DNA of 64,000 bases from positions 93,064,001 to 93,128,000 of the forward strand of contig CM059432.1 of the NCBI GenBank assembly GCA_030390025.1, read 5' to 3'. Each line of letters begins with the position of its first letter. The first letter of the stretch is position 1. Source of the DNA: Squalus acanthias (Eukaryota). The position numbers and the translations under genes were made by a program. Below are positions 21,512 to 64,000 of this stretch, in pieces. A model generated the notes under the pieces. It saw nothing but the letters and a program-made list of their open reading frames with translations. It ran no database searches and had not been told where the DNA came from.

Positions 21512-21646
21512 GGGGTAATTTTTACCTTCACTGCTTGGGCAGTAAACTGGCCGAGTAGATTGCTCGCCCATTCTAGAAATTCTAGGGCAGGTGGGAGATC
21601 TGCTCCGCCAGTTTACTACACAAGAGGTGAAGGTGAAAACTACCCA
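21512..21646. mobile_element. Short palindromic MITE
   Basis: GGGGTAATTTTTACCTTCAC ... GTGAAGGTGAAAACTACCC, with internal self-complementarity. Confidence 0.7.
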
Positions 21647-25422: not shown

Positions 25423-25962
25423 TGAAACTGAAACAGCGCATTAAGCTGAAACTGGATGCCAAAACAAAATGGTTTTCCATACTCCTCCCCTTAACCGAAA
25501 CAAAGTTCATCCACCACCACCCCCCCACCTCCCATATAGATCAGTCATATTTCAAATGGTACAAAGGTCCACTGGTGCTCAGAGAGTTAACCAACAAAGG
25601 CATGACTAAATATGAGCTATTCCAAAACATGAAAGAAGGTGGATTTAATACATCCTCCGCACATACTTATTTACACTTTGCCTTGCAATGAGACCTTCTG
25701 GCCAATTCATTTGCTGACAGTATCCACCTAACATACCTTTATATCAAAGGATCGGTGCAAAGGCTGGGAATTTCTGCATGAATTCTCAATATCGGAAAAA
25801 GCCATCATTAATAACAAGATGGGGGTAAAGATTTCCTCTGTGCAGTATTATAAAGGTGTTTATGATTTGTCTGCATATAACACAGAGGAAATCTTCCAAA
25901 ATGTATTTAGTCACTTTTAAGACTGTTAATTACATTCATTTTTCCATCCCAAAGGGTACATA

Positions 25963-27773: not shown

Positions 27774-29159
27774 TAAGTGTTTACCAATTTGTAATACACT
27801 GTAATCCCAGCAGCAGAGTGAACTCTATTAATATAATTAAATCCTGCGCCTTAATGCAAACAATGTGTTAGCTGTGTTCAGAACAATATAGGAGGCAAAA
27901 CAAAATTGCTGACTGGAACTCCACACCAAAATAAATGCGTCAAACAGTTAAAAAAAATATATTTTACACAAATTAATTCAGTGATAATGTCATACGGCAG
28001 TGTGAAGTGGTAAATTCATAACTGATTTCTGGAAGTTCTTTAAACAAAAAGTGATCAATAGGGAATGGAGTTCCAGGTAGGATAGTGGAAGCAAAATCCA
28101 TGGAATTATTTAAGGAACAGTAGAATCCTGTGATGGCAAGAGGTGGGATTGCAGGTTTGATGAGACAGAAAGAGCCAAATGGCCTTCCTCATTTCCGTCT
28201 ATCCTGTGCTCTTAGAAGATAAATAAGTAATAAGTACTTACATTTGTCTGGCTGTGTTGACAGAGATAAAAATTGCTCTTTTACTAGATAAATCACATTG
28301 GATTTTTTTTATTCTGTTAAGTAGCATGGGAAAGAAAGCAATCCTTCTGCCATTTCGGATCTGTTCCAAAGGTTGCGCATTGCTGCACCTCCCCCGCAGA
28401 CTGACCTATTTTTCTCAAAATGCATGATGCAATGTTCAGTGAAACAGGCTTATGCTGCATTTGATACTCTACATGACCCTGAGTAACACTGGAGCACTGC
28501 AGGACCATTAGAAATAAGGGCCCATTGCCTAAAAATACAATTAATTTTCTATTAAAATAAAAGTGAAATCAAATCAAATTAATAAACTAAAAAATTGTTG
28601 TCATTGGCTTTGAATGCAATTTTCCATTCCTACATTTAATGCCTAAGCACAGATGAGATATTAAAACTCCATTTCAGAAATGAAAATAACACTAAAAATA
28701 TAAGCAATGCACACACTCCATTCGGGGAGTGCGAATTTATGCAAGGCGGGGGGGCGGGGATTCACCTGCTCGTCTGCCCTAACTTCAGTGGGAGAGTCGC
28801 GGTAACCTTGAGAAAATGGTAAATGCCATTTTTTCTGCGGTTCCTGCAACTTTTACGCCAAAGTTACAGAAGATGAGTGAGAGAACACCTGCAGAAATTC
28901 ACTCCCTGGGTTAACTTTCGGATTCAAGAATAGATTTTTTGCTCAGGCAAAATCTTAAGCAGAAATATGGTAGAATGTGATGCACGCTTTCCTGATGAGA
29001 AGTTCCTGGGTTAGCCTCACTTTAATATTGACATCGAGCTCCTGGGGTTATGAATGTCACTGATTATGATCTCCCCATTTCGGAAACTGCTGCAGGATTT
29101 TATGTGTGCAGCAGATTAAGAGACACGACACGCGGAACTAAACGCTTTTTACTGAAAAT

Positions 29160-35141: not shown

Positions 35142-36652
35142 GGGCTGGATTTTGTCTTGGGGTCGGGTTAGGGTCGTGTTACCCACATTTCGTGTTGCCC
35201 CCCCGACTCCAGATTAATGTGGATGAATGATGGAATTTTCACTTAATTGGTCAATTGAGTTCAAGCATGTGGGAACCCATGAACCAATTAGTGGTTTCAG
35301 TCTGAAAGTAGCCTGTGATGATGTCATTATTGCAGGTCAGAGACTGCCTGCCTGGTCTCATAGATTGCCTGGCCTTTGCTGTGAGTGGACCTGGATGCAA
35401 AATGAGCAGCATCTGAGAGAGAGAGAGCGAGCGAGAGAGAGAGAGAGAAGAGAGAGAGAGAAGAGAGAGAGGGCTGGATTTTGAATGACCCGTGGAGTCG
35501 GGTTTGGAGGCGTGTGGGGGGTTAAAGTTGCGGGGTCGGGGGTCCCGACCCCATCCCGCCTCCACGCAATTTTGATAAAATCGTGTGCGGTGTTCCCGAC
35601 TCCGTCCCGCCTCCAAGAGGCGGGAGAGGCCATTAAAGCCCTTAACAAGCCCTAAATTGGCTCTGTAATGCCATTTTGAAACGTTTTAGCTAGTTTAACC
35701 CTTTTCCGACGTAAAGTACGCCTGATGTGAAACACTCCAGTGAAACCTGGCGGGAGCACAAGTGGATCGCTGACTATCAGATGCAGGTCCACTATTACAA
35801 CGGAGATGTGATGAAGGTAGTAGTATTAGGTATTAGATCTGTAAGTCGCCTCTGATGCTGCTGCATTGAATGTTTTCAGAGACTGCCTGGCCTTTGCTGT
35901 GAGAGGACCTGGATGCAAAAAAAATTCTCATTCTCTCTCTCTCTCTCTCTCCTCATTTTGCATCCAGGTCCTCTCACAGCAAAAGCCAGGCAGGTCCTCT
36001 CACAGCAAAAGCCAGGCAGTCAGTCTCTGACCTGCAATGCAGCAGCAATGATGACATCATCAGAGGCGACTTTCAGACTGAAACCACTAATTGTTTCATG
36101 GGTTCCCACATGCTGGAACTCAATTGCCCAATTAAGTGAAAATTGCATCATTCATCCACATTAATCTGGAGTCGGGGAGGAACACGAGATGCGGATGACA
36201 CGACCCTAACCCGACCCCAAGACAAAATCCAGCCCAGAGACTCTCTGAAGACATTCAATGCAGCAGCATCACAATACTGCTACTACTACATCACAATACT
36301 ACTACTACCTTCATCACATCTCCGTTGTAATAGTGGACCTGCCTATCCACTTGTGCTCCCGCCAGGTTTCACTGGCATGTTTCACATCAGGCGTGCTTCA
36401 CGTCGGAAAAGGGTTAAACTAGCTAAAACGTTTCAAAATGGCATTACAGAGCCAATTTAGGGCTTGTTAAGGGCTTTAATGGCCTCTCCCGCCTCTTGGA
36501 GGCGGGACGGAGTCAGGAACCCCGCGCCCGATTTTGTCAAAATTGCGTGGAGGTGGAATGGAGTCGGGATGGGGTCGGGACCCCTGAATCTGCAACTTTA
36601 ACCCCCCACACGCCTCCAAACCCGAGTCCACGGGTCATTGAAAATCCAGCCC
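35142..36652. mobile_element. ~750-bp Harbinger-type MITE (outer copy) containing an inverted copy of itself
   Basis: TIR GGGCTGGATTTT / AAAATCCAGCCC. ATA TSD at 35139-35141 and 36653-36655. Confidence 0.9.
35471..36235. mobile_element. Inner MITE copy, opposite orientation, inserted in the outer copy's (GA)n tract
   Basis: Same TIRs. AGA TSD at 35468-35470 and 36236-36238. Confidence 0.9.
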
Positions 36653-40695: not shown

Positions 40696-41366
40696 GGGGG
40701 GGAAAATTGGGTCGCGCCCCCTTTGGTGCGCTAGCGCCCCGAAAAAGTTAGCACCCCCGCACCTGAAATTCACCGGTAGCTACTGGAAGCGCCCCGCCTC
40801 CCTCCTGGGGCGCTGCGAGTGAATATCGCGGGGCTACGTGCCGCAGCGCCACGCTCTACGGCACGTCGCGCTGCAGTACTGCAGGCTTTCCTCCCCTTAT
40901 TAAAGGGGTGGGGCCTAGCGCAGCGTGACCTGGGGGCCCAGCTGGGCCACCAGGGATCGGAGTGCCGACAAAAGAGCCCAGCACTCAAGAGAAGTGCGGG
41001 ACTCACGGAGCGCAGCCGGCACTCCGCGGAGGGGGGGGGGGGGGGGGGGGCTTCACAGGAGGCCGGGGACGGCAAAGCGGGCAGGTGCTGGCAAGCGGCC
41101 AGCAATAAAAATGGCCGCCCGGCACCTTCCCTTTAATTTGCGCCACCCCGGCCGCAGGTAGGCCCTCCCGACCCAGTCGGACATAGCGTCCGCCGGTAAG
41201 TCAGAAGGCGCTGTGCATGGTGATGACGCCATCGCCGGCGGCGCAGCGCCGCGCTAACGGTTACCGGCGCTGCTAACACCTCCCGCGAAATTCAGCGCTG
41301 GTTGCTTTGCGCCCCGTTAGCGCCCCAGGGCGCTAACGAGGCGCAAATCAACCGAATTTTTCCCCC
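40696..41366. mobile_element. Harbinger-type MITE (GGGGGAAAAATT family), inverted relative to 5437 and 13349
   Basis: TIRs, ATT TSD and GCGCC-rich subterminal regions. Confidence 0.82.
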
Positions 41367-43469: not shown

Positions 43470-44713
43470 ATTCATTCATGGGATGTGGGTGTCGCTGGCA
43501 ACGCCAGTATTTATTGCCCATCCCTAATTGCCCTCGAGAAGGTGGTGGTGAGCCACCTTCTTGAACTGCTGTAGTCCGTAAGTTGAAGGTACTCCCACAG
43601 TGCTGTTAGGGAGGGATTTCCAGGATTTTGACCCAGCAATGATGAAGGAACGGCAATATACTTCTAAGACAGGATAGTGGGTGACTTGGAGGGGAACTTG
43701 CAGGTGGTGGTGTTCCCATGCACCTGCTGCCCTTGTCCTTCTAGGTGGTAGAGGTCGCGGGTTTGGAAGGTGCTGCCGAAGAAGCCTTGGCAAGTTGCTG
43801 CAGTGCATCTTGTAGATAGTACACACTGCAGATACCGTGCGCCGGTGGTGGAGGGAGTGAATGTTTAAGGTGGTGGATGGGGTGCCAATCAAGCGGGCTG
43901 CTTTGTCCTGGATGGTGTCGAGCTTCTTGAGTGTTGTCGGAGCTGCGCTCATCCAGGTGGAGAGTATTCCATCACTCTCCTGACTTGTGCCTTGTAGATG
44001 GTGGAAAGGAGGTAAGACACTCGTCGCAGAATACCCAGCCTCTGATCAGCTCTTGTAGCCACAGTATTTATGTGGCAGGTCCAGTTAAGTTTCTGGTCAA
44101 TGGTGACCATCAGGATGTTAATGGTGGGGGATTCAAAGATGGTAACGCAATTGAATGTCATGGGGAGGTGGTTAGACTTTTTCTTGTTGGAGATGGTCAT
44201 TGCCTGGCACTTGTGTGGCGCGAATGTTAATTGCCACTTATCAGCCCAAGCCTGAATGTTGTCCAGGTCTTGCTGCATGCGGGCACGGACTGCTTCATTA
44301 TCTGTGGAGTTGCAAATGGAACTGAACACTGTGCAATCATCAGTGAACATCCACACTTCTGACCTTATGATGGAGGGAAGGTAATTGATGAAGCAGCTGA
44401 AGATGGTTGGGCCTAGGACACTGCCCTGAGGAACTCCTGCAGCGATGTCATGGGCTGAGATGATTGGCATCTAACAACCACAGTCATCTTCCTTTGTGCT
44501 AGGTATAACTCTAGCCAGTGGAGTGTTTTCCTGGATTCCGATTGATTTCAATTTTACTAGGGCTCCTTGATGCCACACTCGGTCAAATGCTGCCTTGATG
44601 TCAAGGGCAGTCGCTCTCACCTCACCTCTGGAATTCAGCTCTTTTGTCCATGTTTGGACCAAGGCTGTAATGAGGTCTGGTGGTGAGTGGTCCTGGCGGA
44701 ACCCAAACTGAGC
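43470..44713 (-). mobile_element. EN/RT LINE (CR1/Jockey group, distinct from HER1), 5'-truncated
   Basis: ALDIKAAFDRVWH, GVPQGSVLGP, FTDDCTVF, YKAQVRRVMEY. 3' end shared with three other copies. Confidence 0.85.
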
Positions 44714-44879
44714 ATTCTGTTGGGTATGCCCACAAAGCAGTTAGCCTCTGGCATCTACAACTGAAGCTATATGCATGCTGTGTTGGTTTGCACTCACACA
44801 CAGAGGGATGTGCACTGGCCACAGGACTGGGTGTTTGGGCCCCAATTTCTAGCATCCGGTAGTCCAGGAAAAGGCTGTT

Positions 44880-45030
44880 CACAACCACTGGGAAAAAATG
44901 CTCACAGATGATGAGGGACCACCATGATTAAAGCATCTAACCCAATATGAGAAGATGGTCCTTGGCATATGTGGCCTCAGGTGTGTGGAAGATGTATACA
45001 GGCGAAAGTTCAGAGGAGTGCTGCCTTCAC
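44880..45030 (+). pseudogene. Possible relic of a Harbinger Myb-like gene exon 2
   Basis: EGPP*LKHLTQYEKMVLGICG resembles GGGQATVQTLSRQEEPLLDIIVG in the 55707-55869 exon. Confidence 0.3.
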
Positions 45031-45629
45031 TCAGCAAGTATCCTCCTTTTGTTTCTCTCATTGCTACCCTTAATCAGTCTCTCACTCAGTAACACAGAGG
45101 CAGTCAATGCACAAAAGTAGCATGGCACACAATATATTGATATTATGTTTGTAGGATTTTTACACGAGATATTTTCCTTGAGTTCAACAACACAGACAAC
45201 TCCCATAAGTGAGCACATACTCCATGACCTGCCGAGTGTCTCCACCTGCCCAGTGTCTAGGTAAAAAAAAGCAAGCGCCCCCCATGTTCATGGAGACACT
45301 CTTCTTTTCTCTCTCATCCAGTTCACGAACCCTTCTCCCTCAATTCATAGTGACACTTTTCTCCCCCTTCAGTTCATACTAGCAATTTTTTCACCCTTCT
45401 CAATTCCTGTTGGCATTCTTCCTCTTTTCCTTGCCACGCCCAGATCCTAACTGAACTTAACAGAGATGAAACTATGCTGTGGCTAGGAATTTTTGTAAGA
45501 TCAGGAATTCCCACAGAGCAAAGTTCCATCCACCAGAACACCAGCATTCATCAGTTAGGAGCCAGGGGTAGCGCTGAGAGCCAGATTCCGCAGTATTACC
45601 AGGAGTCACACAGAACCCGGTGTGATGGA

Positions 45630-45765
45630 AGAACATAAGAATTAGGAGCAGGAGGAGGCCATATGGCCCTTCGAGCCTGCTCCGCCATTCAATAAGATCA
45701 TGGCTGATCTTCGACCTCAACTCCACTTTCCCGCCCGACCCCCATATCCCTTGCTTCCCCTAGAG
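45630..45765 (-). mobile_element. CR1/HER1 3' end fragment
   Basis: Reverse complement of 40230-40360. Confidence 0.8.
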
Positions 45766-46393
45766 TCAGAAGCAGTGCTCACTTTATGCTGCCCTGGGTA
45801 AAATGTGTCATAAACCTAATGTGACTATGCCCCAGGTCATGTTATGACTTCATAATGTATCAATCAAACAACAGATAGAGTACTGTGTGAAAATAGAACA
45901 ATGAAAGGACTGGGGCCATTATTAAAATGTAATGTAATAACATTTAGGCTTTCAGTCATTTGCTGACAATCCAAAGCCTCCTTTATCTTCAACCCTAGTG
46001 ATCATTTAAACACCTGATACCATGTGAATTAATGATAATGGTGGGTCTTGAGTTGCATGTAATTAAAGCTAGATATTGTGAAACCCACTATTACAATTCT
46101 CTCTTGAAGATACACACATCTGAAATATCATATGATTTAGCTTAAGCATGTCAACTGTGAAAACGATTAGAATGGTCATTGCTAACTGACAATTTTCCTT
46201 ATTGCTGGCCACAATTTAGACCGTGTTAAGGTCAGTTTTTTTCATTGTTTCCTGCAAGTACAGAGAACTTACATTACAGTTTAGCTAATATTGGCACCAC
46301 AGAGCAAGGGAGGAACATGCATAATTCAGGAAGTCCATGGTATTTATGGTCTGATTGCTGCCCTTGAATGTGGATAGACCTGTCCAGCAGATA

Positions 46394-48066
46394 TTTTTTT
46401 ATTCGTTTCAGGATGTGAGCATCGCTGGCAAGGCCTGCATTTATTGCCCATCCCTAGTTGCCCTTGAGAAGGTGGTGGTGAGCCGCCTTCTTGAACCGCT
46501 GCAGTCCGTGTGGTGAAGGAACTCCCACAGTGCTGTTAGGTAGTTCCAGGATTTTGATCCAGCGACGATGAAGGAACGGCGATATACTTCCAAGTCAGGA
46601 TGGTGTGTGACTTGGAGGGGAACTTGGAGGTGGTGGTGTTCCCATGCGCCTGCTGCCCTTGTACTTCTAGGTGGAAGAGGTTGTGGGTTTGGGAGGTACT
46701 GCCGAAGAAGCCTTGGCGAGTTGCTGTAGTGCATCTTGTAGATGGTACACACTGCAGCCACGGTACGTCGGTGGTGGAGGGAGTGCCAATCAAACGGACT
46801 GCTTTGTCCTGGATGGTGTTGAGCTTCTTGAGTGTTGTTGCAGCTGCACTCATCCAGGCAAGTGGAGAGTATTCCATCACACTCCTTACTTGTACCTTGG
46901 AGATAGTGGCAAGGCTTTGGGGAGTCAGGAGGTGAGACACTTGCCGCAGAATACCCGGCCTCTGACCTGCTCTTGTTGCCACAGTATTTATGTGGCTGGT
47001 CCAGTTATGTTTCTGGTCAATGGTGACCCCCCGCCAGGATGATGATGGTGGGGGATTTGGCGATGGTAATGCCGTTGAATGTCAAGGGTAGGTGGTTAGA
47101 CTCTCGCTTGTTGGAGATAGTCATTGCCTGGCACTTGTGTGGCACGAATGTTACTCGCCATTTATCAGCCCAAGCCTGAATGGTGTCCAGCTCTTGTTGC
47201 ATGCGGGCCTTAACTGCTTCATTTTCTGAGGAGTTGCAAATTCAACTGAACACTGTGCAATCATCAGGGAACATCCCCACTTCTGACCTTATGATGGAGG
47301 GAAGGTCCTTGATGAAGCAGCTGAAGATGGTTGGGCCTAGGATACCGCCCTGAGGAACTCCTGCAGCGATGTCCTGGGGCTGAGATCATTGACCTCCAAC
47401 AACCACAACCATTGTGCTTTGTGCTAAGTATGACTCCAGCCAGTGAAGAGTTTTCCCCGTTTCCCATTGACTTCAATTTTACTAGAGCTCCTTGATGCCA
47501 CACTTCGTCAAATGCTGCCTTGATGTCAAGGGCAATCACTCTCACCTCACCTGTGGAATTCAGCTCTTTTGTCCATGTTTGGACCAAGGCTGTAATGAGG
47601 TCTGGAGGCGAGTGGGATCTGGCGGAACCCAAACTGAGCATCGGTGAGCAGGTTATTGGTGAGTAAGTGTCGCTTGATAGCACTGTCGACGACACCTTCC
47701 ATCACTTTGCTGAGATTGGCCGGATTGGATTTATCCTGCTTTTTATGGACAGGACATACCTGGGCAGTTTTCCACATTGTCTGGTAGCTGCCAGTGTTGT
47801 AGCTGTACTGGAACAGCTGGCTAGAGGCACAGCTAGTTCTGCAGCACAAGTCTTCAGCACGATAGCTAGGATGTTGTTGGGGCCCATAGCCTTTGCTGTA
47901 TCCAGTGTGCTCAACCGTTTCTTGATATCACGTGGAGTGAATCGAATTGGCTGAAGACTGGCTTCTGTGATGGTGGGGACCTCAGGTTGAGGCCGATATG
48001 GATCATCCACTCGGCACTTCTGGCTGCAGATGGTTGCAAATGCTTCAGCCTTGTCTTTTGCACTCA
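46394..48066 (-). mobile_element. EN/RT LINE copy, 5'-truncated and frameshifted
   Basis: ORF fragments 46441-48079 carry RT motifs homologous to 60895-63870. Confidence 0.85.
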
Positions 48067-49164
48067 ATATATTTGGCACAGTTCTATGAAACTAGCCATC
48101 TCATTCAATTTAAAACCTCCTAGGTGATTGTCATTCTGGGGTACTGATTCCTGATTGACAACTGTGTCTAGGTGAAGTCATGAGTAGGGTCTGTGAATGG
48201 GGGCAGGTTAAATTATTCTTTGTAGTTCTACTGATAGATCCCTGAGGCCAGGGGTTTATATTGGGCTGCCTACCATTAGCTCAACAGTCAGTCCATAGCC
48301 AGCAGAGAAACGGTGCTAGTTTGACTTTGTGATGGTGTTTCACCATATAGGAAGTGCACTTCTATTTTCATGATCCAAAATATGTTGAGAGATAACTGAG
48401 GGAAAAGTGCTCTTTATTGTTTAGACTTATATCGAACAGGATAGTAGTTTGTAATTACTGTACCATATACTGTTTTGCACTGATTACTATTCATTTACCC
48501 GCTCTATATTAAATAAACCATTTGTTAGTTTATAGCCTGAGCCACGGTCTGTGCAATCTGCCGATTGCAGAAGAGAAGAATCATGTGGTGGCTATTCCAG
48601 TAAGCCAGTGTACAGTGCCAAGGGCTCTCTGCTGAATCCCTGGTTTTTTTATGTTCACTTAAATATTGGGCAGGTAAAGACACATTTGGGTTTGTACGGT
48701 ACGTAAGGTCTACTTAAGGGAATGGTCAGTGATGCTGCACCTGAATAGATTATCCAATGTAAATACTAAAAACATATGGCTAAACATGGAGGAAGATTTC
48801 CTTTGTTTGGCATTTGTAAATGTAAAATTGTAGATTACGGTCCAAAAATGTGTTTATGATTTTGATGCAAATAGGCAACAGAGAAATTTTCTTCACTTGT
48901 GTACATATAGGCCCTCAACTTGCAGCATGATATAATAGCAGACAAATGCTTAACGTTTTTGTCTGAAATTTCTCTCACCGCTATTTTAGCGGAGGTGTTG
49001 AAATATATGCCAAATTCTCACGTGGGATCTTTTTGAAGGATTGTAATGATGAGAGCATTGTAACATATGTTCCTCTTCAGGAAGTTGCTCCAGGGCTCAG
49101 TGTCGATCAGCTCCATAGCATCTCACAGTATCCAATGCCACTCACTCCAGCACAATGAACACTA

Positions 49165-50243
49165 GCTCAAGTGGCTGGAGTCATACCTAGCAGAAAGGAA
49201 GATGGTTGTGGTGGTTGAAGGTCAATCATCACAGCCTCAGGACATCACTGCAGAAGTTCCTCAGGGCAGTGTCCTAGGCCCAACCATCTTCAGCTGCTTC
49301 ATCAATGACCTTCCCTCCAACATAAGGTCAGAAATGGGGATGTTCGCTGATGACTGCAGTGTTCAGCGCCATTCACAACTCCTCAGATAATGAAGCAGTC
49401 CATGCCCGCATGCAACAAGACCTGGACGACGTTCAGGCTTGGGCTGATAAGTGGCAGGTAACATTCGTGCCACTTAAGTGCCAGGCAATGACTATCTCCA
49501 ACAAACGAGAGTCTAACCACCTCCCCATGACATTCAATGGCATTACCATCGCTGAATCTCCCACTATCAACATCCTGGGGGTCACCATTAACCAGAAACT
49601 TAACTGGACCAGCCACATAAATACTGTGGCAACAAGAGCAGGTCCGAGGCTAGGTATTCTGCGGCGAGTGTCTCACCTCCTGACTCCTCAAAGCCTTTCC
49701 ACCATCTACAAGGCACAAGTAAGGAGTGTGATGGAATACTTTCCACTTGCCTGGATGAGTGCAGTTCCAACAACACTCAAGAAGCTCGACACCATCCAGG
49801 ACAAAGCAGCCCGCTTGATTGGCACCCCATCCACCACCTTAAACATTCACTCCCTCCACCACTGGCGTACTGTGGCTGCAGTGTGTACCATCTACAAGAT
49901 GCACTGCAGCAACTTGCCAAGGCTTCTTCGGCAGCACCTCCCAAACCCACGACCTCTTCCACCTAGAAGTACAACGGCAGCAGGCGCATGGGAACACCAC
50001 CACCTGCAAGTTCCCCTCCAAGTCACACACCACCCTGACTTGAAAGTATATCGCCGTTCCTTTATCGTCGCTGGGTCAAAATCCTGGAACTCCCTAACAG
50101 CACTGTGGGAGTTCCTTCACCACACGGACTGCAGCGGTTCAAGAAGGCAGCTCACCACCAGCTTCTCAAGGGCAACTAGGGATGGGCAATAAATGCTGGC
50201 ATTACCAGCGACACCCTGATCCCATAAACGAATAAAAAAAAAA
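49165..50243 (+). mobile_element. EN/RT LINE copy, 5'-truncated, with poly(A) tail
   Basis: VPQGSVLGP and MFADDC; ORF 49350-50192; ends GAATAAAAAAAAAA. Confidence 0.85.
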
Positions 50244-51069: not shown

Positions 51070-51810
51070 GGGCTGGATTTTGAATGACCCGTGGAGTCGG
51101 GTTTGGAGGCGTGTGGGGGGTTAAATTTGCGGGGTCGGGGGTGCCGACCCCATCCCGCCTCCACGCAATTTTGACAAAATCAGTCACGGAGTTCCCGACT
51201 CCGTCCCGCCTCCAAGAGGCGGGAGAGGCCATTAAAGCCCTTAACAAGCCCTAAATTGGCTCTGTAATGCCATTTTGAAACGTTTTAGCTAGTTTAATCT
51301 TTTTCCGACGTGAAGTACGCCTGATGTGAAACACTCCAGTGAAACCTGGCGGGAGCACAAGTGGATAGCTGACTATCAGCTGCAGGTCCACTATTACAAC
51401 GGAGATGTGATGAAGGAAGTATTAGGTGTGAATGATGCTGCTGCATTGAATGTCTTCAGAGACTGTATGGCCTTTGCTATGAGAGGACTTGGATGCAAAA
51501 AAATTCTCTCACTCTCTCTCCTGCCACATTTTACATCTAGGTCCACTCACAGCAAAAGCCAGGCAGGTCCTCTCTCACCAACAGCCAGGCAGTCTCTGAG
51601 ACCTGACAGACAGCAATGATGACATCATCAGAGGCGACTGTCAGACTGAAACCACTAATTAGTTCATGGGTTCCCACATGCTGGAACTCAATTGCCCAAT
51701 TAAGTGAATATTGCATCATTCATCCACATTAATCTGGAGTCGGGGGGGGGGGGGGAACACAAAATGCGGATAACACGACCCCAACCCGACCCCAAGACAA
51801 AATCCAGCCC
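51070..51810. mobile_element. ~750-bp Harbinger-type MITE, left member of an inverted dimer
   Basis: TIRs GGGCTGGATTTT / AAAATCCAGCCC. ATA at 51067-51069 and 51811-51813. Confidence 0.9.
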
Positions 51811-51813
51811 ATA

Positions 51814-52543
51814 GGGCTGGATTTTGATACTGGGGCGGATTGGGGTCGTGTCATCCGCATTTCATGTTATCCACCTGACTGCATTTGGATGTGGGAGATT
51901 GATGCAATTTTCACTTAATTGGGCAATTGAGTTCCAGCATGTGGGAACCCATGAACTAATTAGTGGTTTCAGTCTGAAAGTCGCCTCTGATGATGTCAGC
52001 ATTGCAGGTCAGGTCAAAGACTGCCTGGCGTTTGGTGTGAGAGGACCTGGATGCAAACTGAGCAGCAGCTCTAAGGAGAGAGAGAGAGAGAGAATTTTTT
52101 TTGCATCCAGGTCCTCTCACAGCAAAGGCCAGGCAGTCTCTGAAGACATTCAGTGCAGCAGCATCAGAGGCGACTTTCAGACCTAATACTACTACTACCT
52201 TCATCACATCTCCGTTGTAATAGTGGACCTGCAGCTGATAGTCAGCGATCCACTTGTGCTCCCGCCAGGTTTCACTGGCGTGTTTCACATCAGGCGTGCA
52301 CATCAGGGTTAAACTAGCTAAAACATTTCAAAATGGCATTACAGAGCCAATTTAGGGCTTGTTAAGGGCTTTAATGGCCTCTCCCGCCTCTTGGAGGCGG
52401 GACGGAGTCGGGAACACCGCACACGATTTTATCAAAATTGCGTGGAGGTTGGAGGCGGGATGGGGTCGGGACCCCCGAATCTGCAACTTTAACCCCCCAC
52501 ATGCCTCCAAACCCGACTCCATGGGTCATTGAAAATCCAGCCC
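51814..52543. mobile_element. ~750-bp MITE, right member, opposite orientation
   Basis: Same TIRs. ATA at 51811-51813 and 52544-52546. The flanks rejoin a Penelope fragment (CACCACCAAACAC-ATA-TTCTCCTTCCC). Confidence 0.9.
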
Positions 52544-52770
52544 ATATTCTCCTTCCCTCCCCTTTCAGCATTCCGATGGGACCGTTCCCTCCGTGACACC
52601 CTGGTCCACTCTTCCATGTGACACATGCGAGGTCACAGCATCCAGCACACGCAATAAGGGGTCTTTTTTTCAAAGTCCTGAGTCACGGCTATCATTCAAC
52701 CTTTATAAAACACTGGTTAGGCCTCAGCTAGAATATTGTGTTCAATTCTGGGCACCACACTTTGGGCAGT

Positions 52771-53705
52771 AAAACAAAGGCAAAATACTGTGGATGCTAT
52801 ATCATGCCTTCCCCTCCCTCCCAAAACCACGATAGGGTTCCCCTTGACCTCACCTTCCACCCCACCGGCCTCCACATTCAACGAATCATCCTTCGCCATT
52901 TCCGCCACCTCCAGCGCGATGCCACCACCAAACACATCTTCTCCTCCCCTCCCCTTTCAGCATTCTGATGGGACCGTTCCCTCCGTGACACCCTGGTCCA
53001 CTCTTCCATTACCCCCAACACCCACTCCCCTTCCCATGGCACCTTCACATGCAAGCGCAGGAGATGCAACACCTGCCCTTTCACTTCCTCCCTTCCCACC
53101 GCCCAGGGCCCCAAACACTCCTTCCAGGCGAAACAGTGATTTTACTTGTTTTACTTTCAATTTAGTATACTGTATTCGCTGCTCACGATGCGGTATCCTC
53201 TACACTGGGGAGAACAAATGCCCCACTCCCACTCTGACCTCTCCGTCCTCGGCCTCTTACACTGTTCTAACGAAGCTCAACGGAAGCTTGAGGAACAACA
53301 CCTCATCTTTCGATTGGGCACTTTACAGCCTTCTGGACTCAACATCGAGTTCAACAATTTCAGATTATAACCGCTGCCCCCATTTTATCGGACAGCAGGT
53401 GTTGCCATTTACAGTTCCTCTAGAACCATCTTTTGTTTCTTTACTTGTCCCATTACCACCCCCTTTTGCCTTGCACCATCATCCATTTTGTCATGTAAAC
53501 ATGCCTGCCTTCCACCCTATCACAGACCTTCCCTTTTGTTCTTTCCTCCTCTCCACCCATTTACTTGCCTCTGTACTTGCTTAAAACCTGTTACATCTCT
53601 AATTTTTCCAGTTCTCATGACAGGTCATCAACCTAAAATGTTAACTCTGTTTCTCTGTCCATAGATGCTGCCTGACTTGCTGAGTATTTCCACATTTTGT
53701 GTTTA
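52771..53705 (+). mobile_element. Penelope-like element fragment with a short inverted pLTR piece at its 5' end
   Basis: NLVYCIRCSRCGILYTGE and RKLEEQHLIFRLGTLQPSGLNIEF. 52771-52798 is the reverse complement of the pLTR end. Decayed hammerhead at about 53610-53646. Confidence 0.8.
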
Positions 53706-55181
53706 TATGTAAAGGTGCAATCCTGATCATAGAGAATGCAAGGTCTGCTTACAGGATTGACCAGTGACGCAAAATGTATACTGTAGACATATTGTTACTG
53801 GAGATTGTACCAACAAACTGCAACAGCTAAAGCTAGTATAGAGGAGTCCACTACTGCCTCCTTGCAGTTATCAAGAATGGAATAGTATCACTTTCTCCAG
53901 GAATCATGTGAGAATTCCAGACAGTAGAGCCCCACCAGCACAGACCCTATGACATCTCTTGTGTATGCTCAGACTCATGCTAGAGGCCTTGGGTTCCAAT
54001 ATGGAACGGGCTCTCTCTTTTGGATTTGGCAGGCCTGGGAATTGGATAGGGATAACCATGAAGCAGGGCTTCACTGATCTCCTTGGTGCCATAGGGTCTT
54101 CTGCCATGCAGATCAGTAAGCATGGTGGGGCAGTGCCATCATCAGAGGTATTGTTAGAGTTGGCACAGATCTGACTCTAAGAATGACAACACATCTGTCC
54201 TTCCTGCCATCTTGCTCAAATGATTTTAGTCGTGCCAGGACGCCTCACAGATGCAGAAGTGGCAGAGTCGGTCGCTGGGCCATCTCATGACCCAGCTCAA
54301 GGAGGTTGAGGGCCACCTCAATTCCAACAGGCTCTCACTGACACACAATAACTAACCATCTTGTATACTTCTGCCACTGGGGAAGTGCATAGAAGAAGCA
54401 TAACACTAGGGTGTACACCATGGATATCATGTAGTGTCACTTAAGGGATGCACCAGGATACAAAACACTAGGCACACACGTATCACCGTTAGGGCTGTTA
54501 CTATAATAACATTTGGATGTACTGAGGTTCTACTGTTTCTAGAGATTCTTTTTGTATGGTATTGAATAATGTGTCAGCAGATGACAGGAATGGGATCCTT
54601 GGTAGTTCAGTTGAAGCTAATGGCAATGTAGGTGAAGGTGCATATTGGCACAGTGAAGATGTAGAGATCACTAATGATGCTTTGGGTGGAGGGTCACTTG
54701 GGTAAGAGTGTCATCTATGAGAGCTTGGGGTACGAATTTAGCAATGTGCAAAGATGTTTCTCCAGAAAGATTTCATGCCTCTTCCTGCTATCTTGGTTGT
54801 CTCCTGGGCATAGTTGGCTGTCCTCTTACTCCAGCGTTATACCTCAATGGGTGGCAAAGTTGTGCAGCATGCAACAGACTACGATGATCCGGAAGACTTT
54901 GGCAAGGTTGTATCTGTTAAGGCACCAGGGCCTAGAAATTGGATTAGGCCTGAAAATGGGCTGTGTCAAAGGCCAGCTCTATTTGCCTGCACCCGTTGAA
55001 AGTGGTCCAGGCAGCACACAAGTGCTGATTTCAGCGTTAAACGTGCTGCTGATTGGCTTAGCGCTCAACAGGTGGGCCAATATCGGGTGCAGTCTAATGT
55101 CTGGCCTAGGCTCTCTCCACTACTTAAAGGGGAGGTGCTTTGTTGCAGCAGCACCTCATTGTCAGTCTAAACGAAGCACAA

Positions 55182-57050
55182 ATGGGACAATAACCCAGAG
55201 AGAGAGCAAGAAGGTTTTCGGATGCTGCACTCAAGGCCTCGGTAGTGGCAGTTGAAAGAAGGCAGGCTGTACTGTTCCCGCAGGATGGCAGGAAGCCATC
55301 CAAGGCTACTTGCAGAAGGCTCTGGGAGGAAATAGCTAACTCCGTCACGGCCAACAGTGTCGTGCCAAGGACGTGGATCCAGTGCCGAAAGAAGTTTAAT
55401 GACCTTACACGTCAGGTCAAGGTGAGTGAAGGCTTCAGCAAATGCCATCTCCCACCATCTGCACCACAAGCCTCACACACTGCTCAATGCACCACACCCC
55501 CATCACTCACCTACTAACAATCTCTACCTATCACCACTCATACCTCACAATCATGGCTTCTCTTCACCCTCACAACATTACCACTGCTGCAGCACTCACA
55601 CCCAAATCTCACACTTTGCACACACTGACAGGTATTCAAATATAGCAGGCACATCACCCAAACACATTGCACTACACTCACTGACATACTTCCCTTTCTC
55701 TTGCAGGCAAAGGTGGCTCATAACCGGCGGGAACAGCAGCAGACGGGAGGCGGCCAAGCCACTGTACAGACCCTGAGCCGACAGGAGGAGCCACTGCTCG
55801 ACATCATTGTAGGGGCTGTCACCGAGGCTGTGGCAACGGGAGAAGTTGAAGCCCTCGCTGACAATGACGGTTTGGTCATTCCTAATCATTCTTCTCACGT
55901 CACACTTCCCCCTCATCCCACAATCTCTTCTCACTTACAAGCTGCTGATGGTGTATGCATGGATATCTTGCTTTCCCCCACTTCCCTCACGACAACCTGA
56001 ATCTTGTGGCTTTCTGCTTTCAGATACTCAAAAACTGCCAGCAGGCCAGCCTGTCCCTTATGCTGTGGAGGAGAGTGAAGGAGAAGAAAAGAAGACACAG
56101 CGTCACTGCATCTGACTCTCGCAGACAGCAGCTCAGAAACTGGCACTGCGCGAAACATAGAGGGTAGTATAGAGGCGGGATCTGCACATGGTGAGGTATT
56201 GGGCATGAGTGGGCTGCAGCAAGGCCGGGGGAAAGAGTAGCTCGTGGGTCAGCTCCCCGGAGGGCATGTTCGTGCACGAGTTCTGCTGCACTGGACTCAC
56301 GATGACCTCAATGGGGCGGCCTTCAGATGAAGGGTGATGGTCATGCACACTGAATTGCTAGGTACAATGGCAAGCCTGCCAGAGAGCCTCTTTTCAAAGT
56401 CAAGGAGCACAGAGGAGTCCAGCTCCAACATTGGACGGGGCTTTGCACAGAGCTTGGAGCTCATGATTTCCAGGCTGGAAAGATGGACAACTCCAGGAGA
56501 GACCTTATCGACCCAGCCATGATGCTGCGTGTGATGAGCGATACCGTGACTTCCGTTGCAGCACAGGCAGATGCGACCCAACGTCTCAGTGCTGCAGTGG
56601 ACGCGCAGACTGCTCTCCTACAGGCTCAGCTTGCTGCCACGCAAGCTCAGACTGCTCTCAGACTGCTGCCATCGTGGCTGGGTTTACCAGTGTTGAAAGA
56701 GGCTTGCAGTGTGTCACAGCAGGCCAGCAATTTGTCCTCTAACAGATTGTTAAGAATGCTGGGCACTGCCCCAGGGGAGTGGTAGTGGGTCAGTGGAGCA
56801 GGACCCTGCTGTCCTCTCTCAGGATGACAGCATTCCCACTCCCACCACTGCCACTCCGCCATTGCCCTTGCCGCTGCCTATCAGCCAGCCCAGACTGCTG
56901 CCGCCTATGCCGAGGTGCTGCAGTCTACAGCCGGGCCTTCTAGGTCCACAGCTGGTCGAGGTCGTCCTGCAAGGCCATCTGTCGTCTCCCCCACTGAAAG
57001 TCAGCAGCCTTCCACCAACCATGCTGCAACCACTGGGGAAGCACTAGAAT
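55182..57050 (+). pseudogene. Harbinger Myb/SANT-like DNA-binding protein, 3 exons (55182-55421, 55707-55869, 56024 to ~57050)
   Basis: RERARRFSDAAL...LWEEIANSVTANSVVPRTWIQCRKKFNDL is a trihelix/Myb-like motif. GT-AG introns keep phase. Premature TAA at codon 4 and frameshifts in exon 3. Confidence 0.82.
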
Positions 57051-57266
57051 AGGAAAAGACACATGAACGACAGACACTAAGGGACTGCACAAGGATGATT
57101 AGTTCATATTGTAATGTTGTTTGAATAGTGATAAATTTATTAATTTTGTTTGGAATGTTTGTTTTGTGGTGGCTCTCATTTCAGCTTTGTGCCCAGGAGG
57201 ACGCTGTGATATTCCGAGGGACGGTATGATGGGCATGTGGTGAGCAACGGGGATCTGGGGTTTCAT

Positions 57267-58371
57267 TCACTGGAATCGGAGTCTGATAAGGCCTTCATGG
57301 ACATCCTGTCCAGAACGGGTATCTGCTGCCTGCCTCCTCCCTTCCTCCTCCTCTTCCTGAAGTAGTCCTGCATCCCTGTGGCAAGGGCTACGCCCTCATG
57401 ATGGCCAAGTTGTGAAGCATGCAGCAGATCACCACAAAATGGGACACCTGCTCCGGCGAGTACTGGAGGGCTCCTCCCGAGCGGTTAAGGCAGCGGAACC
57501 GTTGCTTGAGCACCCTGATGGTCTGTTCGAAGACGTTCCATGTGGCGGCATGGCTCTCATTATATGAGTGCTGGACAGGGGTGGTGGGGTTGCGGAGGGG
57601 AGTCATCAGCCAGGTGTAGAGCGGATAGCTCTTGTCTCCGAGCAGCCACCCTGGAGTTTGATGTGGTGGCTGGAAGATTGCTGGCACACTGGACTGACAC
57701 AGGATGAAGGCATCGTGACTGTTGCCAGTATAGCGGGCATTGACCATCAGGATGCACTAGGCGTGGTCGCACAACAACTGCACATTAAGTGAGTGGTAGC
57801 CTATCCAGTTACAGAACATCTCAGGATTGTTATGTGGCGCCTGCAAAGTCACGTGGGTGCAGTTGATGGCGCCCTGCACCATGGGGAAGCCCACTATCCT
57901 GGCAAAGCCACATGCACACTCGTCATGCTTCTCTCTGTTCAGAGAGAAGACAAAGTAGTCCCTTCTCCTCGTGTAGAGAGCCTCTGTGACCTTCCAGATG
58001 CAGCGATGGACAGCGAACTGGGAGATGATAGCTATGTCTCCTGCTGCAGACTGGAAGGATCCGCTGACGAAGAAATCGAGGGCCATGGTGACCTTGAGGG
58101 CTACTGGGAGAGCCATGTTTGCCGTGCTCTGAGGCCGCAGGTCTGGTTGCAGGAGGTGGCAGAGTTCTGTGGCCACCTTCTTGGTGAAGCTGAGCCTCCT
58201 AAAACACTGCTCCTCGCTTAAGTGGAGGTAGGAGAAGTGCTCTCGGAAGACCCTAGGTGGTAAAGGCCTCCTGTTGAGAGCCCTCATGGCCCTACTCCTC
58301 CTCCCTCTGCGCGCATCTTCTTGTCTTCTTCACTGCCTCCGCTCGAGGGGAAATGCAAGTAGCGTCCCCAT
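57267..58371 (-). pseudogene. Harbinger DDE transposase (HARBI1-like)
   Basis: GFPMVQGAINCTHV, YHSLNVQLLCD, HDAFIL, WLLGDKSYPL, EQTIRVLKQRFRCL, CCMLHNLA. In-frame stops, and the first catalytic D reads N. Confidence 0.9.
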
Positions 58372-58908
58372 GACTGTGAACAAGTGGTGTGAGCAGAAGC
58401 CTTTAAATAAGGATTAAGGCGTTCTCCACTTGCACCAACACTCCCTGTCACCTCAGGAACTTGAAAAAAGTTTAGAAAGCTGCAAAAGTTACAGAAAGTT
58501 ACACAGAGCCAATCAAAATGAGAAACCATGTCAGCTGCAAGTTGTTGATGATGGTCCCTTTAAATAGTGCTGCTGGAGGCTCCTTCCTGCTAGCGAACAC
58601 TTGGTCGTGATTAACACAGGCCGGTAAGTGGAGCGGCGAATGCGAAAATGGCAGATCGGGCTTTAAGATGCACATTGCACTCACTGATGGCCCAATCTGC
58701 CTAATCTAAATATCTGCAGCGAGCGCAGGCATCGGCAACTCAGCCAACCTGCCCAAAATGGCGGCTGCCGCGGGAGACGCCGAAAGCGAGGCGGCCGCCA
58801 TTTTTCCTTCAAAACGGGCGTTAACGGCCAGCGCTAAACCCCTGAATTTCTAGGCCCAGAAGTTTCTATGATTCTTAAAACCACTTGGGTGCCAATCAAT
58901 AATGCCAA

Positions 58909-59798
58909 GGGGGAAAAATTAGGTCGCGCCCCATTTGGGGCGCAAATATCGTCTGGACGCAAATATTAGCACCTGGCGCTAATTATCGGCACTGACTGGA
59001 AACTTCACTTTTACCGCCCCGGGAGGTGAGTGGAGCACTAAATCAGGCGCTGCACACCTGTCTTAAGGCGCAAAGGCCAAGGAGTGAGGCGCTAACTCAG
59101 AGCGCTGGCGAAGCTCATGTAATGTCAGTCAGCAATGGAACACACACACAATGGCACGGGCCAGTTCTTAAAGGGGATGGTTAATCTTGCTTTCCATCCA
59201 CATCCTGTTCATTGCAGCCTTGAATCTCGGCCTGGAGAGACTTGCACATCAAATGTGCTGGAAAGAACAATGGAGAGTACCAGGCAAAGAGCTCAGAGTG
59301 CAGCTCCCACAGTCTCTGCTAAATCGATACAAGGAATGGCAAATCAAAATGAACCTGCAAAGTGCTGCTCAGTACCCAAAACTCCTTCACACAACGTTGA
59401 ATCTCTCCAGAAGTCTCTCCCTCTCTCAGAATGCGTAGTTCAAAAATGCCACCAACAATAAAAGACAGGAAGAGGCCCCCTTTAAATAGCGCCCCCCCCC
59501 AGCCCCACAGCGATTGATAGCGTTCCAGTCTTCTGGTCGTTGGATGCGCCAGGCGGTAAGGCAGGGGGCGCCACTCAATTTCCGCTCCGGGGCGCCACAA
59601 GGGCGTTGCACCATGGAATGACGTCACAATCTGCGCGCGCAGGTGGTCGCAGCGGTAAAGTTTAGCGCCGCCGCACAATCTCTAGTTAAGTTCCCGAGCG
59701 GCGCAAACATCGCTGCGCCCGGGCGTTAGCGGCTTTGCGCCCCATTAGCGCCCTCTTAAGGCGCTAACGGGAGGCGCAACCAACTGAATTTTTACCCC
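58909..59798 (+). mobile_element. ~890-bp non-autonomous Harbinger element (paralog of 19011-19895)
   Basis: TIR GGGGGAAAAATT / AATTTTTACCCC with CAA/TAA duplication; collinear with 19011-19895. Confidence 0.85.
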
Positions 59799-59848
59799 TA
59801 AGTCTTTAGAAAAAATGCAGTCTCATATTGTTGCTGGGAATAACAATT

Positions 59849-60613
59849 GGGCCAAAAATTCGGCTGTTGTCGGGTGAGTATGCGCTGTGTACTCACCCGT
59901 AAGGCCACCTGAAGTGCCAGTTTCCTGCATGCACTGCGCATGCGCGGGAAACCGGAACTTCCGTTCCCCTGAAGGGAGGGGTTCAGAAGTCGAACGCGTG
60001 CGCGGGAGAGGCTGCGCGCACGCAGCGAACTTCAGGTTTTTTTTCAGGTTTCTCCGGGAAGGTAAGTATGAAGAAGCTGCACTTTTAAAAAGGAGGCGCA
60101 AGGCCTGTTTTTAACAAGGTAAGTGGTTAATTAATTACAATTTAAACATTTTTTCAACAGGTTTATCTTTTTTAGATACTTTAAAGAAAGGTAAGTTTAT
60201 TTTTAGCACCGTTAAAAAGTATAATTAATTTTTTCAAAAATTTAAATTTTTGTTTAAAGTAGTTAATTTATTTAACTTATAGTTATTTTAAAAATGTGAT
60301 TTTTAAAAAAAAGTTTATTTGAAGTTTAAGTGAGGTTTTGGGGCCGATCTCTATTCATAGATTTGACAGGTCTTCCTGTCAAATCTATGAATGAAAATGC
60401 CCTGCTAGGATTGGCTCTCCATGGCCCACGTGATCCCAGGGGACGCTTCGAACTAACTGCGCCCCTGGGATACACAAGCACTGCGCGCCGGCAGCTGCAG
60501 GAGGCCCAGGACCCGAAGTCCTCGTGGGCCCAAAGCACAACTGCAGGCGCGGTAGGCAAGTACGCGCGCGATGCTTGCACCCACAGGAAGCCGGAGAGCC
60601 GAATTTCTGGCCC
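59849..60613 (+). mobile_element. 765-bp Harbinger-type MITE
   Basis: 17-bp TIR GGGCCAAAAATTCGGCT / AGCCGAATTTCTGGCCC with one mismatch, ATT TSD, AT-rich centre. Confidence 0.85.
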
Positions 60614-60894
60614 ATTGTTTCCCTGCCAAATAAGGAAATATCTACTTGCTTGATACATCTGTGCATTGCAGATTGACTGATGTTGCTGATGTGCCTCCAG
60701 GCACACAGGAATAAGCCTAAGGCAGAAAAGTGCAGGGCTGCAGTACAATGTCAGCCACTGGCACTGCCATATCTTTGGTGAGGTTTGGCTAGAGGTCACT
60801 ATCCAGCATGTAGCACAACTCTGTCAACAGGGCTCCTGTGAAGTATAGCCTTGAAGACAGAATATCTTTGACATGCCCTCTGCCTGTACTGTAT

Positions 60895-63870
60895 TTTTAT
60901 TCGTTCCTGGGGTGTGGACATCACTGGCAAGGCCAGCATTTATTGCCCATCCCTAATTGCCCTTGTGAAGGTGGTGGTGAGCCATCTTCTTCAACCGCTG
61001 CAGTCTGTGTGGTGAAGGTTCTCCTATAGTGCTGTTAGGGATGGAGTTCCAGGATTTTGACCCAGCGACGATGAAGGATCGGCGATATATTTCCAAGTCA
61101 GGATGGTGTGTGACTTGGAGGGGAACTTGCAGGTGATGGTGTTCCCATGCACCTTGCTGCCCTTGTGTTTCTAGGTGGTAGAGGTCACGGGTTTGGGAGG
61201 TGCTGCCGAAGAAGCCTTGGCGAGTTGCTGCAGTGCATCTTGTAGATGGTACACACTGCAGCCACGGTACGTCGGTGGTGGAGGGAGTGAATGTTTAAGG
61301 TGATGGAAAGGGTGCCGATCAAGCGGCTGCTTTGCCCTGGATGGTGTCGAGCTTCTTGAGTGTTGTTGGAGCTGCACTCATCCAGGCAAGTGGAGAGTAT
61401 TCCATCACACTCCTGACTTGTGCCTTGTAGATGGTGGCAAGGCTTTGGGGAGTCAGGAGGTAAGACACTCATCACAGAATACCCAGCCTCTGACCTGCTC
61501 TTGTGGCCACATTATTTATGTGGCTGGTCCAGTTAAGTTTCTGGTCAATGGTGACCCCCAGGATGTTGATGGTGGGGGATTTGGCGATGGCAATGCCGTT
61601 GAATGTCAAGGGGCAGTGGTTAGACTCTCGCTTGTTGGAGATAGCCATTGCCTGGCACTTGTGTGGCATGAATGTTAATTGCCACTTATCAGCCCGAGCC
61701 TGAATGTTGTCTCGGTCTTGCTGCATGCGGGCACAGACTGCTTCATTATCTGAGGAGTTGCGAATGGAACTGAACACTGTACAATCATCAGCGAACATCC
61801 CCACTTCTGTCCAAATGCTGCCTTGATGTCAAGGGCAGTCACTCTCGCCTTCGAATCACCTCTGGAATTCAGCTCTTTTGTCTATATTTGGACCAAGGCT
61901 GTAAAGCGGTCAGGAGCTGAGTGGTCCTGCCAGATCCCAAACTGAGCATAGATGAGCAGGTTATTGGTGAGTAAGTGCCACTTGATAGCACTGTCAACGA
62001 CACCTACCATCACTTTGCTGATGATTGAGAGTAGACTGATGGGGCGGTAATTGGCCGGATTGGATTTGTCCTGTTTTTTGTGGACAGGACATACCTGGGC
62101 AGTTTTCCACATTGTCGGATAGATGCCAGTGTTGTACCTGTACTGTAACAACTTGGCTAGAGGAGCAGCTAGTTCTGGAGCATAAGTCTTCAGCATAACA
62201 GCCGGGATATTGTCGGGGCCCATAGCCTTTGTTGTATCCAGTGCGCTCAGCCGTTTCTTGATATCACGTGGAGAGAATTGAATTGGCTGAAGACTGGCTT
62301 CTGTGATGGTGGGGACCTCAGGAGGAGGCCGATATGGATCATCCACTTGGCACTTCTGGCTGAAGATGGTTGCAAAAGCTTCAGCCTTGTCTTTTGCACT
62401 CACGTGCTGGGCTCTGCCATAACTGAGGATGGGGAAATTCATGGAGCCTCCTCCTCCTGTTAGTTGTTTAATTGTCCACCACCATTCACGACTGGATGTG
62501 GCAGGACTGCAGAGCTTTGATCTGATCCGTTGATTGTGGGATCGCTTAGCTCTGTCCATAGCATGCTGCTTCCGCTGCTTAGCATGCATGTGGTCCTGTG
62601 TTGCAGCTTCCCCTATTGGCACCTCATTTTTAGGTACGCCTGGTTTTGTTCCTGGCATGCTCTTCTACACTCCTCATTGAAGCAGGGTTGGTCCCTTGGC
62701 TTGATGGTAATGTTCGAGTGAGTGATATGCCGGGCCATGAGGTTGCAGATTGTGGTGGAATACAATTCTGCTGCTGCTGATGGCCCACAGTGCTCATGGA
62801 TGCTCAGTTTTGAGCTGCTAGATCTGTTCTGAATCTATCCCAGTTAGTATAGTGGTAGTGCCACACAACACAATGGAGGGTGTCCTCAGTGTGAAGATGG
62901 GACTTCGTCTCCATAAGGAATGTGTGGTGGTCACTGCTACCAATGCTGTCATGGACAGATGCATCTGCAATAGGTAGATTGGTGAGGACGAGGTCAAGTA
63001 GGTTTTTCCCTCATGTTGGTTCTCTCACCACCTGCTGCAGGCCCAGTCTGGCAGCTATGTCCTTCAGGACTTGGCCAGCTCGGTCAATAGTTGTGCTACC
63101 GAGCCACTTTTGGTGATGGACATTGAAGTCCCCCACCCAGAGTACATTCTGTGCCCTTGCTACCCTCAGTGCTTCTTCCAAGTGGTGTTCAACATGGAGG
63201 AGTACTGATTCATCAGCTGAGGGAGGGTGGTAGGTGGTAATCAGCAGGACTTCATGGGGTCCGGAGTCAATGTTGAGGATTCCCAGGGTCACTCCCTCCC
63301 GACTGTAAATCACTGTGCCGCCACCTCTGGGATGGTGATGGAGGAGTCTGGGACATTGGCTGAAAGGTATGATTCTGTGAGTATGACTATGCCAGGCTGC
63401 TGTTTGATTAGTCTGTGGGACAACTCTCCCAATTTTGGCACAAGGGCCCAGATGTTAGTGAGGATGACTTTGCAGGGTCGACTGGGCTGGGCGTGCCGTT
63501 GTTGTGTCCGAAGTCGGTGCCGGGTGGTCCATCCAGTTTTGTTCTTATTATTGTTTTCTGTAGCAGTTTGTTACAAATTGGGTGGCTTGCTAGGCCATTT
63601 CAGAGGGCAGTTAAGAGTCTGGAGTCACATATAGGCCAGACCAGGTAAGGACAGCAGATTTCCTTCCCTAAAGGGCATTCGTGAACCAGATGGGTTTTTA
63701 CGACAATCTGATAGTTTCATGGTTACCATTACTGACACTAGCTTTTTATTCCAGATTTATTTAATTATCTGAATTTAAATTCCCCAGCTGCCGTGGTGGA
63801 CGTCTCTGGATCATTAGTCCAGGCCTCTAGATTACTAGTCCAGTAACATAGCCACTATGCTACCGGTCCC
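60895..63870 (-). mobile_element. Near full-length EN+RT LINE with tRNA-like 5' head, no ORF1 and an internal RT deletion
   Basis: APE start ILTNIWALVPKLGEL...IVILTESYL near 63460, then VGDFNVHH, NYRPISLLSIISKV and MFADDC. Deletion junction at about 61810. Head GGGACCGGTAGCATAGTGGCTATGTTACTGGACTAGTAA at 63870-63832. Confidence 0.85.
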
Positions 63871-64000
63871 ATTTTGGGTTCTATGTAAGAGTGGGTGCAG
63901 GCAATATGCTTCTTGTGTAACTTCACTTGTCTGGTATCTCTTCTTAGTTCCTCCTCTTTTTCCTCCAAATAACAGCAATTCAATAGTGTAATAGTAATAG

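Follow-up and report, generated by a model that had tools for sequence, protein, structure and literature searches.

In vertebrate Harbinger transposons a preference for a 15-bp target site has been described (PMC2836001), and the consensus reported for Harbinger3_DR of zebrafish is AAACACCWGGTCTTT (PMC3016246). In the PHIS classification scheme, the NuwaI group is described as having a CWG target site duplication (TSD) and a terminal inverted repeat (TIR) that usually starts with GGG (PMC4482050). [quoted passage not shown] For Drosophila, insertion-site preference has been described as yielding dimers of transposable elements by double insertion (McGurk and Barbash, bioRxiv 10.1101/158386). 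In PMC9179366, cartilaginous fish are represented by the elephant shark only, in which no such elements were found, and our literature search, supplements excepted, returned no paper on Harbinger nests in sharks. Here we describe a nest in a stretch of 64,000 nucleotides of the Squalus acanthias genome (the window; assembly GCA_030390025.1, contig CM059432.1, positions 93,064,001 to 93,128,000 of the forward strand), where three elements, A, B and C, lie within the relic of a HARBI1-type transposase gene.

The layered nest was confirmed: known kinds of element interrupt a decayed, internally deleted HARBI1-type transposase. The coordinates of the three inserts in the original prediction were all correct, with TIRs and flanks or TSDs found at the ends of each element (Table 1). 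The elements were excised in silico and the rejoined leftover was searched as a 1.6-kb target, the size to which the E values refer; 79 of 84 HARBI1-like proteins matched it at E<=0.01. The leftovers had been described as a collinear transposase with internal deletions, and this held in a frameshift-aware alignment to a profile of the 61 of these 84 proteins that are 300-450 amino acids (aa) long. Compared with protein P0001, the relic is collinear over aa 55-208 (patchily from 149) and again over aa 320-343, and it lacks ~100 aa of the catalytic core. The two spacers, when joined and held to the expected stretch of the profile, narrowly beat all 300 shuffles (17.6 against a maximum of 16.7). 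The insertion points had also been placed about 50 bp apart in the reconstructed target. The present gaps are indeed 52 nt between A and B and 50 nt between B and C, but deletions fall inside these relic spacers, and one deletion junction may be placed to either side of A's site, at aa ~205 or ~305 according to the alignment, so that the three sites would span ~170 or ~470 bp in the undeleted gene.

Table 1. Coordinates of the nested elements, the host relic and adjoining features (positions in the window).
Feature	Position	Strand	Remarks
Element A	54929-58856	.	3928 bp; full-length dead two-gene Harbinger-type (PHIS) transposon; TIR GGCCTAGAAATT, TSD CAG
Element B	58909-59798	.	890-bp non-coding TIR element; flanks CAA/TAA
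Element C	59849-60613	.	765-bp non-coding TIR element; TSD ATT
Myb/SANT-like gene of A	55194-57050	+	Broken by stops and frameshifts; end approximate; Pfam Myb_DNA-bind_5 E=1.3e-10
HARBI1-type DDE transposase gene of A	57250-58371	-	Pfam DDE_Tnp_4 E=4.4e-22; 3' end approximate
Relic, 5' piece	60614-60881	-	~aa 60-148 of P0001; 0/200 shuffles alone; one contig deep in each of four runs
Relic, spacer between C and B	59799-59848	-	~aa 149-177, with deletions; weak alone (108/200 shuffles)
Relic, spacer between B and A	58857-58908	-	GIID motif region, aa 178 to ~205; weak alone (39/200 shuffles)
Relic, 3' piece	54760-54928	-	IIVVCCMLHNFA, aa 316-343; 0/200 shuffles; left limit approximate
Myb-like gene of the host itself, likely 3' remnant	54250-54430	+	Convergent with the relic transposase
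Long interspersed nuclear element (LINE), reverse transcriptase fragments	60887-63866	-	Adjoins relic 5' part; ends approximate; RVT_1 E=8e-7 and 1e-3, under the curated cut-off

Element A is a dead two-gene transposon. Its 12-bp TIR is perfect at both ends and it is flanked by CAG/CAG. The two genes are convergent and both are broken. The Myb/SANT gene aligns with protein P0085 over aa 8-370 of the latter, in several frames. The transposase gene has stops at codons 14, 205, 328 and 359, and its first catalytic Asp reads Asn; the C-terminal open reading frame has P0001 as its best match (85% identity), and the nearest proteins overall are entries from sharks and rays named 'putative nuclease HARBI1'. 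All the traits of the PIF/Harbinger (PHIS) superfamily that we looked for, namely TIRs, a 3-bp TSD, two genes and an extended palindromic target, are present in A. In its DDE transposase and Myb/SANT genes, 3-bp TSD and 15-bp palindromic target, A resembles Harbinger3_DR and Harbinger3N_DR of zebrafish, as these are described (PMC3016246, PMC2836001); in the PHIS scheme the CWG TSD of the zebrafish elements is of the NuwaI type (PMC4482050). The target site of A ranks in the top 0.17% of window positions for the 15-bp motif defined below and matches the Harbinger3_DR consensus at 10 of 15 positions, a score equalled by 75 of 2125 CWG sites in the window. The CAG duplication is of the CWG type reported for NuwaI; the TIR, however, starts with GGC when the CAG duplication is honoured, unlike the usual NuwaI start, in a comparison that covers TSD and TIR (PMC4482050). 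There is no clean nested insertion in the body of A, despite its 3.9 kb and its likely greater age than B and C.

B and C are non-coding. The TIR of B is GGGG(G/T)AAAAATT, the two ends differing at one base, and its CAA/TAA flanks have one mismatch. In C the TIR is GGGCCA(A/G)AAATT, part of an inverted match of 18 nt that has a single mismatch, and the ATT/ATT duplication is perfect. Against the 84 transposases neither gave a credible blastx match (the single match had E=0.015). Both have traits of non-autonomous Harbinger/Tourist-like MITEs, being non-coding and multicopy with TIRs and a 3-bp TSD (with one mismatch in B); the multicopy state is read from very high contig depth. A copy of B at 87.5% identity lies at 19011-19895 and a related copy of C (76%) at 1-234. 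The TIR of B is identical to the right TIR of a Myb-bearing element at 25963-27773, and that of C is only similar; the bodies of B and C have no internal homology to A or to the 25963-27773 element at E<=0.01. Three different Harbinger elements had been proposed, a description that suits A, with both Harbinger genes, whereas B and C are without a coding link to Harbinger. Unlike the zebrafish Harbinger3_DR, B, C and the other MITEs of the window have A/T-rich TSDs inside a similar flanking motif.

Several further observations concern these families. C contains a perfect 18-bp hairpin with a 4-nt loop at 60353-60392 and an imperfect palindrome at 59905-59960 that is also found in the copy at 1-234. 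The Harbinger-type element at 25963-27773 is non-autonomous; its Myb/SANT exon, on the minus strand (27079-27306), is decayed, its right TIR is B-type and its flanks are ATA/TAA, and a small repeat is inserted in it at ~26423-26567. Other B-type elements with NWN target duplications are located at 5437-5964, 13349-13860, 19011-19895 and 40696-41366, the one at 5437-5964 lying in a LINE-like repeat that comes after a Harbinger-like left end at 4402.

All three nested elements share a target motif with insertions elsewhere in the window. Our census comprised 12 clean two-ended elements and one cut by the window start, decayed ends being excluded. Seven of the 12, as well as the start-cut element, lie outside recognisable Harbinger DNA. 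These seven solo insertions, of which one is hosted by a LINE-like repeat, one by another interspersed repeat and five by DNA in which no similarity to Harbinger was detected, yield a 15-bp palindromic target of about RRANAY-nWn-RTNTYY, close to that reported for zebrafish Harbinger3_DR (AAACACCWGGTCTTT; PMC3016246). The leave-one-out ranks of the seven solo sites were all <=0.8%. Outside the nest, 6 of 8 sites matched at least four of the five positions of A-N-N-Y-nWn-R-N-N-T, compared to 9.5% of background (p=2e-5). The sites of A, B and C ranked at 0.17%, 1.6% and 5.2% of positions, respectively (Fisher p=1.4e-4). Intact Harbinger bodies were motif-poor, with a mean motif weight of 0.47 compared to 0.94 for the window. 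The CAG hit by A lies at the FRCL codons of relatives and the relic reads F-W-C-L there, suggesting that the target likely arose by CpG decay of the Arg codon in this conserved motif. The idea that the relic is rich in the motif was rejected, as 46 sites matched at least four of five positions where 48.9 were expected.

To date the insertions, contigs from four of 24 listed public runs (a second sample of organism A and organisms J, K and L) were aligned to 53600-64000. In the second sample of organism A, single contigs agreed with the relic save for 1 and 0 differences, and they extended into element A by 30 nt, into C by 22 nt and into the LINE by 37 nt. In J and K a single contig, ~3.3% diverged, covered 53670-54954 and reached 26 nt into element A. 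With 26-30 nt for A and 22 nt for C, these overlaps are shorter than the 31 nt of our bridging rule. The LINE is common to J, K and L, and contigs of K and L cross its junction with the relic. For K and L the alignment breaks off at 60613, leaving 229 and 205 letters of the contigs unaligned, and for J it breaks off near this position. On these alignments, C is absent from this site in K and L. Contig depth in the right-end bin of C was 107469 in organism A and 2116, 884 and 603 in J, K and L, and depth at 59517 in B was 609550 compared to 890, 247 and 121; overall, this bin and the diagnostic part of B were 50- to 5000-fold deeper in organism A. These depths indicate that the subfamily of B expanded only in the lineage of organism A, and from subfamily depth only, B is probably missing in the relatives. 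None of the 15 listed joints proves an empty site. Alleles missing from relatives at single sites were not used alone, the second sample of organism A itself lacking the window letter at 55783 and 58690. The ratio of observed to expected CpG was 0.11 in the relic, 0.34 in the LINE, 0.44 in A, 0.81 in B and 0.99 in C. Together, these results point to an order in which the relic came first, A and the LINE followed, and B and C arrived last.

The host of the nest was likely a once-complete two-gene Harbinger element, to judge from a candidate Myb remnant at 54250-54430 that was first picked by eye and then tested against shuffles. Its comparison with the C-terminus of A's Myb gene scored 56 against a shuffle maximum of 47 (0/300). 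One of five queries was clearly significant, a second gave 4/300 and three were not significant, with P0085 at 186/300 and P0086 at 122/300. A scan for the relic's own TIRs and TSD found no paired ends, its 5' side being cut by the LINE and the window end. Two further ideas about the relic were rejected. A continuation past the LINE (63867-64000) was not significant (59/200 shuffles, best blastx E=0.11), and a multicopy deleted family was not seen in any of the four runs, where depth was that of a single contig at >=80% likeness, a measure in which contigs can miss copies. The LINE, which the original prediction had not described, has four other copies in the window. The LINE copies at 43470-50240 and 60887-63866 show 85-89% identity, and two of them are opposed in orientation within 43.5-50.2 kb.

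We consider it probable that the nest reflects three independent, motif-guided insertions of different ages, brought close together by chance in an element-crowded genome. An old two-gene Harbinger would have died, lost its CpGs and taken deletions. Element A and the LINE would then have inserted before the lineage split from the ~3% diverged relatives, and B and C later, in lineage-specific bursts, with the transposases picking sites by DNA sequence and not by former coding content. A number of observations weigh against this reading. With uniform placement, a triple within 102 bp had a probability per window of P=0.003 for 13 elements and 0.027 for 25 elements. With motif-weighted sites, in a simulation that draws distinct sites from a matrix trained without the family of C, the values were 0.002 and 0.015, so that the triple is unlikely within a single window and motif weighting does not raise P. 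The host is moreover a transposase relic, a class making up ~1% of target DNA, which makes the triple rarer still. The two gaps are near-equal, at 52 and 50 nt. Motif matches are poorer at the five sites that are nested or adjacent than at the seven solo ones (U=32/35, one-sided p=0.009), also without the adjacent dimer described below (p=0.021), in a post hoc test that was devised after the data were seen, with small numbers and with C's family outside the training set. Finally, all four copies of a MITE family of 730-765 bp (TIR GGGCTGGATTTT) form two dimers, both in opposite orientation. In the 185 windows noted in this genome, 0.37-2.8 such triples are expected if all are as crowded as this one; the relic host lowers this expectation, but other host types would have drawn notice too. 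Of the strong insertion hotspot that had been proposed, there remains a local excess that is mild (P 0.002-0.015 per window) and that chance will produce in a survey of many Harbinger-dense windows. On the reading that we prefer, the locus is an ordinary nest, a small dated record of Harbinger activity in a cartilaginous fish, a group to which the papers returned by our search give little attention, and it illustrates that motif-driven elements at such density mimic homing.

The MITE dimers had been taken as a sign of homing. Both are real, but they fit a known route, the reuse of a preferred target site. In the nested dimer, 35471-36235 is inverted within 35142-36652, in a GA repeat of its partner, with the TSD AGA and a motif rank of 0.5%. 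In the adjacent dimer, 51070-51810 and 51814-52543 share a single ATA inside another interspersed repeat, and the landing triplet is ATC in two uninterrupted copies of this repeat and ATA here. Local hopping as the source was rejected, as the partners are 91.7% and 91.5% alike compared to 89.5-93.7% across loci; partners are not each other's closest copies, suggesting that the dimers are independent insertions. Like the rice and maize multimers, they consist of MITEs that inserted independently into or next to other MITEs; the nest differs from those multimers in being a single-locus case with a transposase-coding relic as host and three families involved (PMC5172404). The two copies sharing one ATA at 51070-52543 are like the dimers of McGurk and Barbash, whose Drosophila case, as described, does not extend to sites 50 bp apart (bioRxiv 10.1101/158386).

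The near-equal gaps raise the question of whether a resident element directs the next insertion, a form of proximity targeting in which the Myb-like subunit would bind a resident Harbinger end and deliver the incoming element to the nearest acceptable motif ~50 bp outside. We regard this as unlikely. It predicts that weaker sites are used and that elements chain from A to B to C, and it is consistent with B lying 52 nt from the end of A and C 50 nt from the end of B, with the weaker motifs at nested than at solo sites (p=0.009, post hoc) and with the apparently greater age of A. A Myb-like protein is also reported to bind the TIRs of Harbinger3N_DR and to interact with the transposase (PMC2836001). 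However, only two such intervals exist, the other pairs lying 3 bp apart or 329 bp inside; no clean neighbour lies ~50 bp from any of the 7 solo two-ended elements; and the low rank of C may be a family preference, the matrix having been trained without its family. The more specific proposal that shark Harbinger transpososomes are tethered through a Myb-like subunit, use weaker motifs ~50 bp outside resident ends and build chains in dead DNA is somewhat more doubtful still. If true, a proximity effect would mean that a eukaryotic cut-and-paste transposon chooses its targets by protein tethering, which would limit host damage and offer a handle for steering Harbinger-based insertion tools. There is only a small chance that the spacing was instead tightened by deletion from sites first 170-470 bp apart, or that breaks and insertions share a permissive, break-prone spot. 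Deletion junctions do occur close to the A and B sites, a few codons away at most, the flanks of B differ by one base, the GC content of the spacers is 33%, which places them in the lowest 14% of 99-mers, and P rises to 0.06-0.38 when the triple is allowed a 470-bp span. Nonetheless, A and C keep perfect TSDs, and B and C appear young in an ancient relic, suggesting that most of the deletions were likely earlier.

Homing by sequence, in which Harbingers would recognise Harbinger-derived DNA or transposase genes would offer preferred targets, is highly improbable. For five of the 13 clean elements the site is within or next to Harbinger DNA (p=0.04, the motif-weighted share being 0.157), the mean motif weight of the relic is 2.0 compared to 0.94 for the window, largely from A's own site, and some rice MITE families are reported to insert into themselves (PMC5172404). 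When the nest, which was the cause of selection, was excluded, the count fell to 2 of 10 (p=0.48), and among B-type elements it was 1 of 6 (p=0.64). Motif counts in the relic are ordinary, the motif-poor bodies of A, B and C carry no clean nested insertion, the relic was also struck by a LINE, and the spacers keep little recognisable Harbinger sequence. The claim that Harbingers home to Harbinger DNA is not demonstrated, and an ordinary motif is present at all sites. Independent, motif-guided insertion remains the reading that we favour.

Other repeats were noted in the window. The interspersed repeat that hosts the 51-kb dimer is found at 52544-53708 and 2314-3215, and one of its frames reads YCIRCSRCGILYTGE, a putative GIY-YIG-like motif of the Penelope kind for which nothing was returned by Pfam. 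Small decayed hairpin elements with Harbinger-like ends and no clean TSD, outside the census, lie at 15291-15393, 17345-17485, 21512-21645, 25822-25900 and 28723-28906. At 17800-18700, short GC-richer blocks in AT-rich DNA resemble, by eye, minus-strand exons of a host gene.

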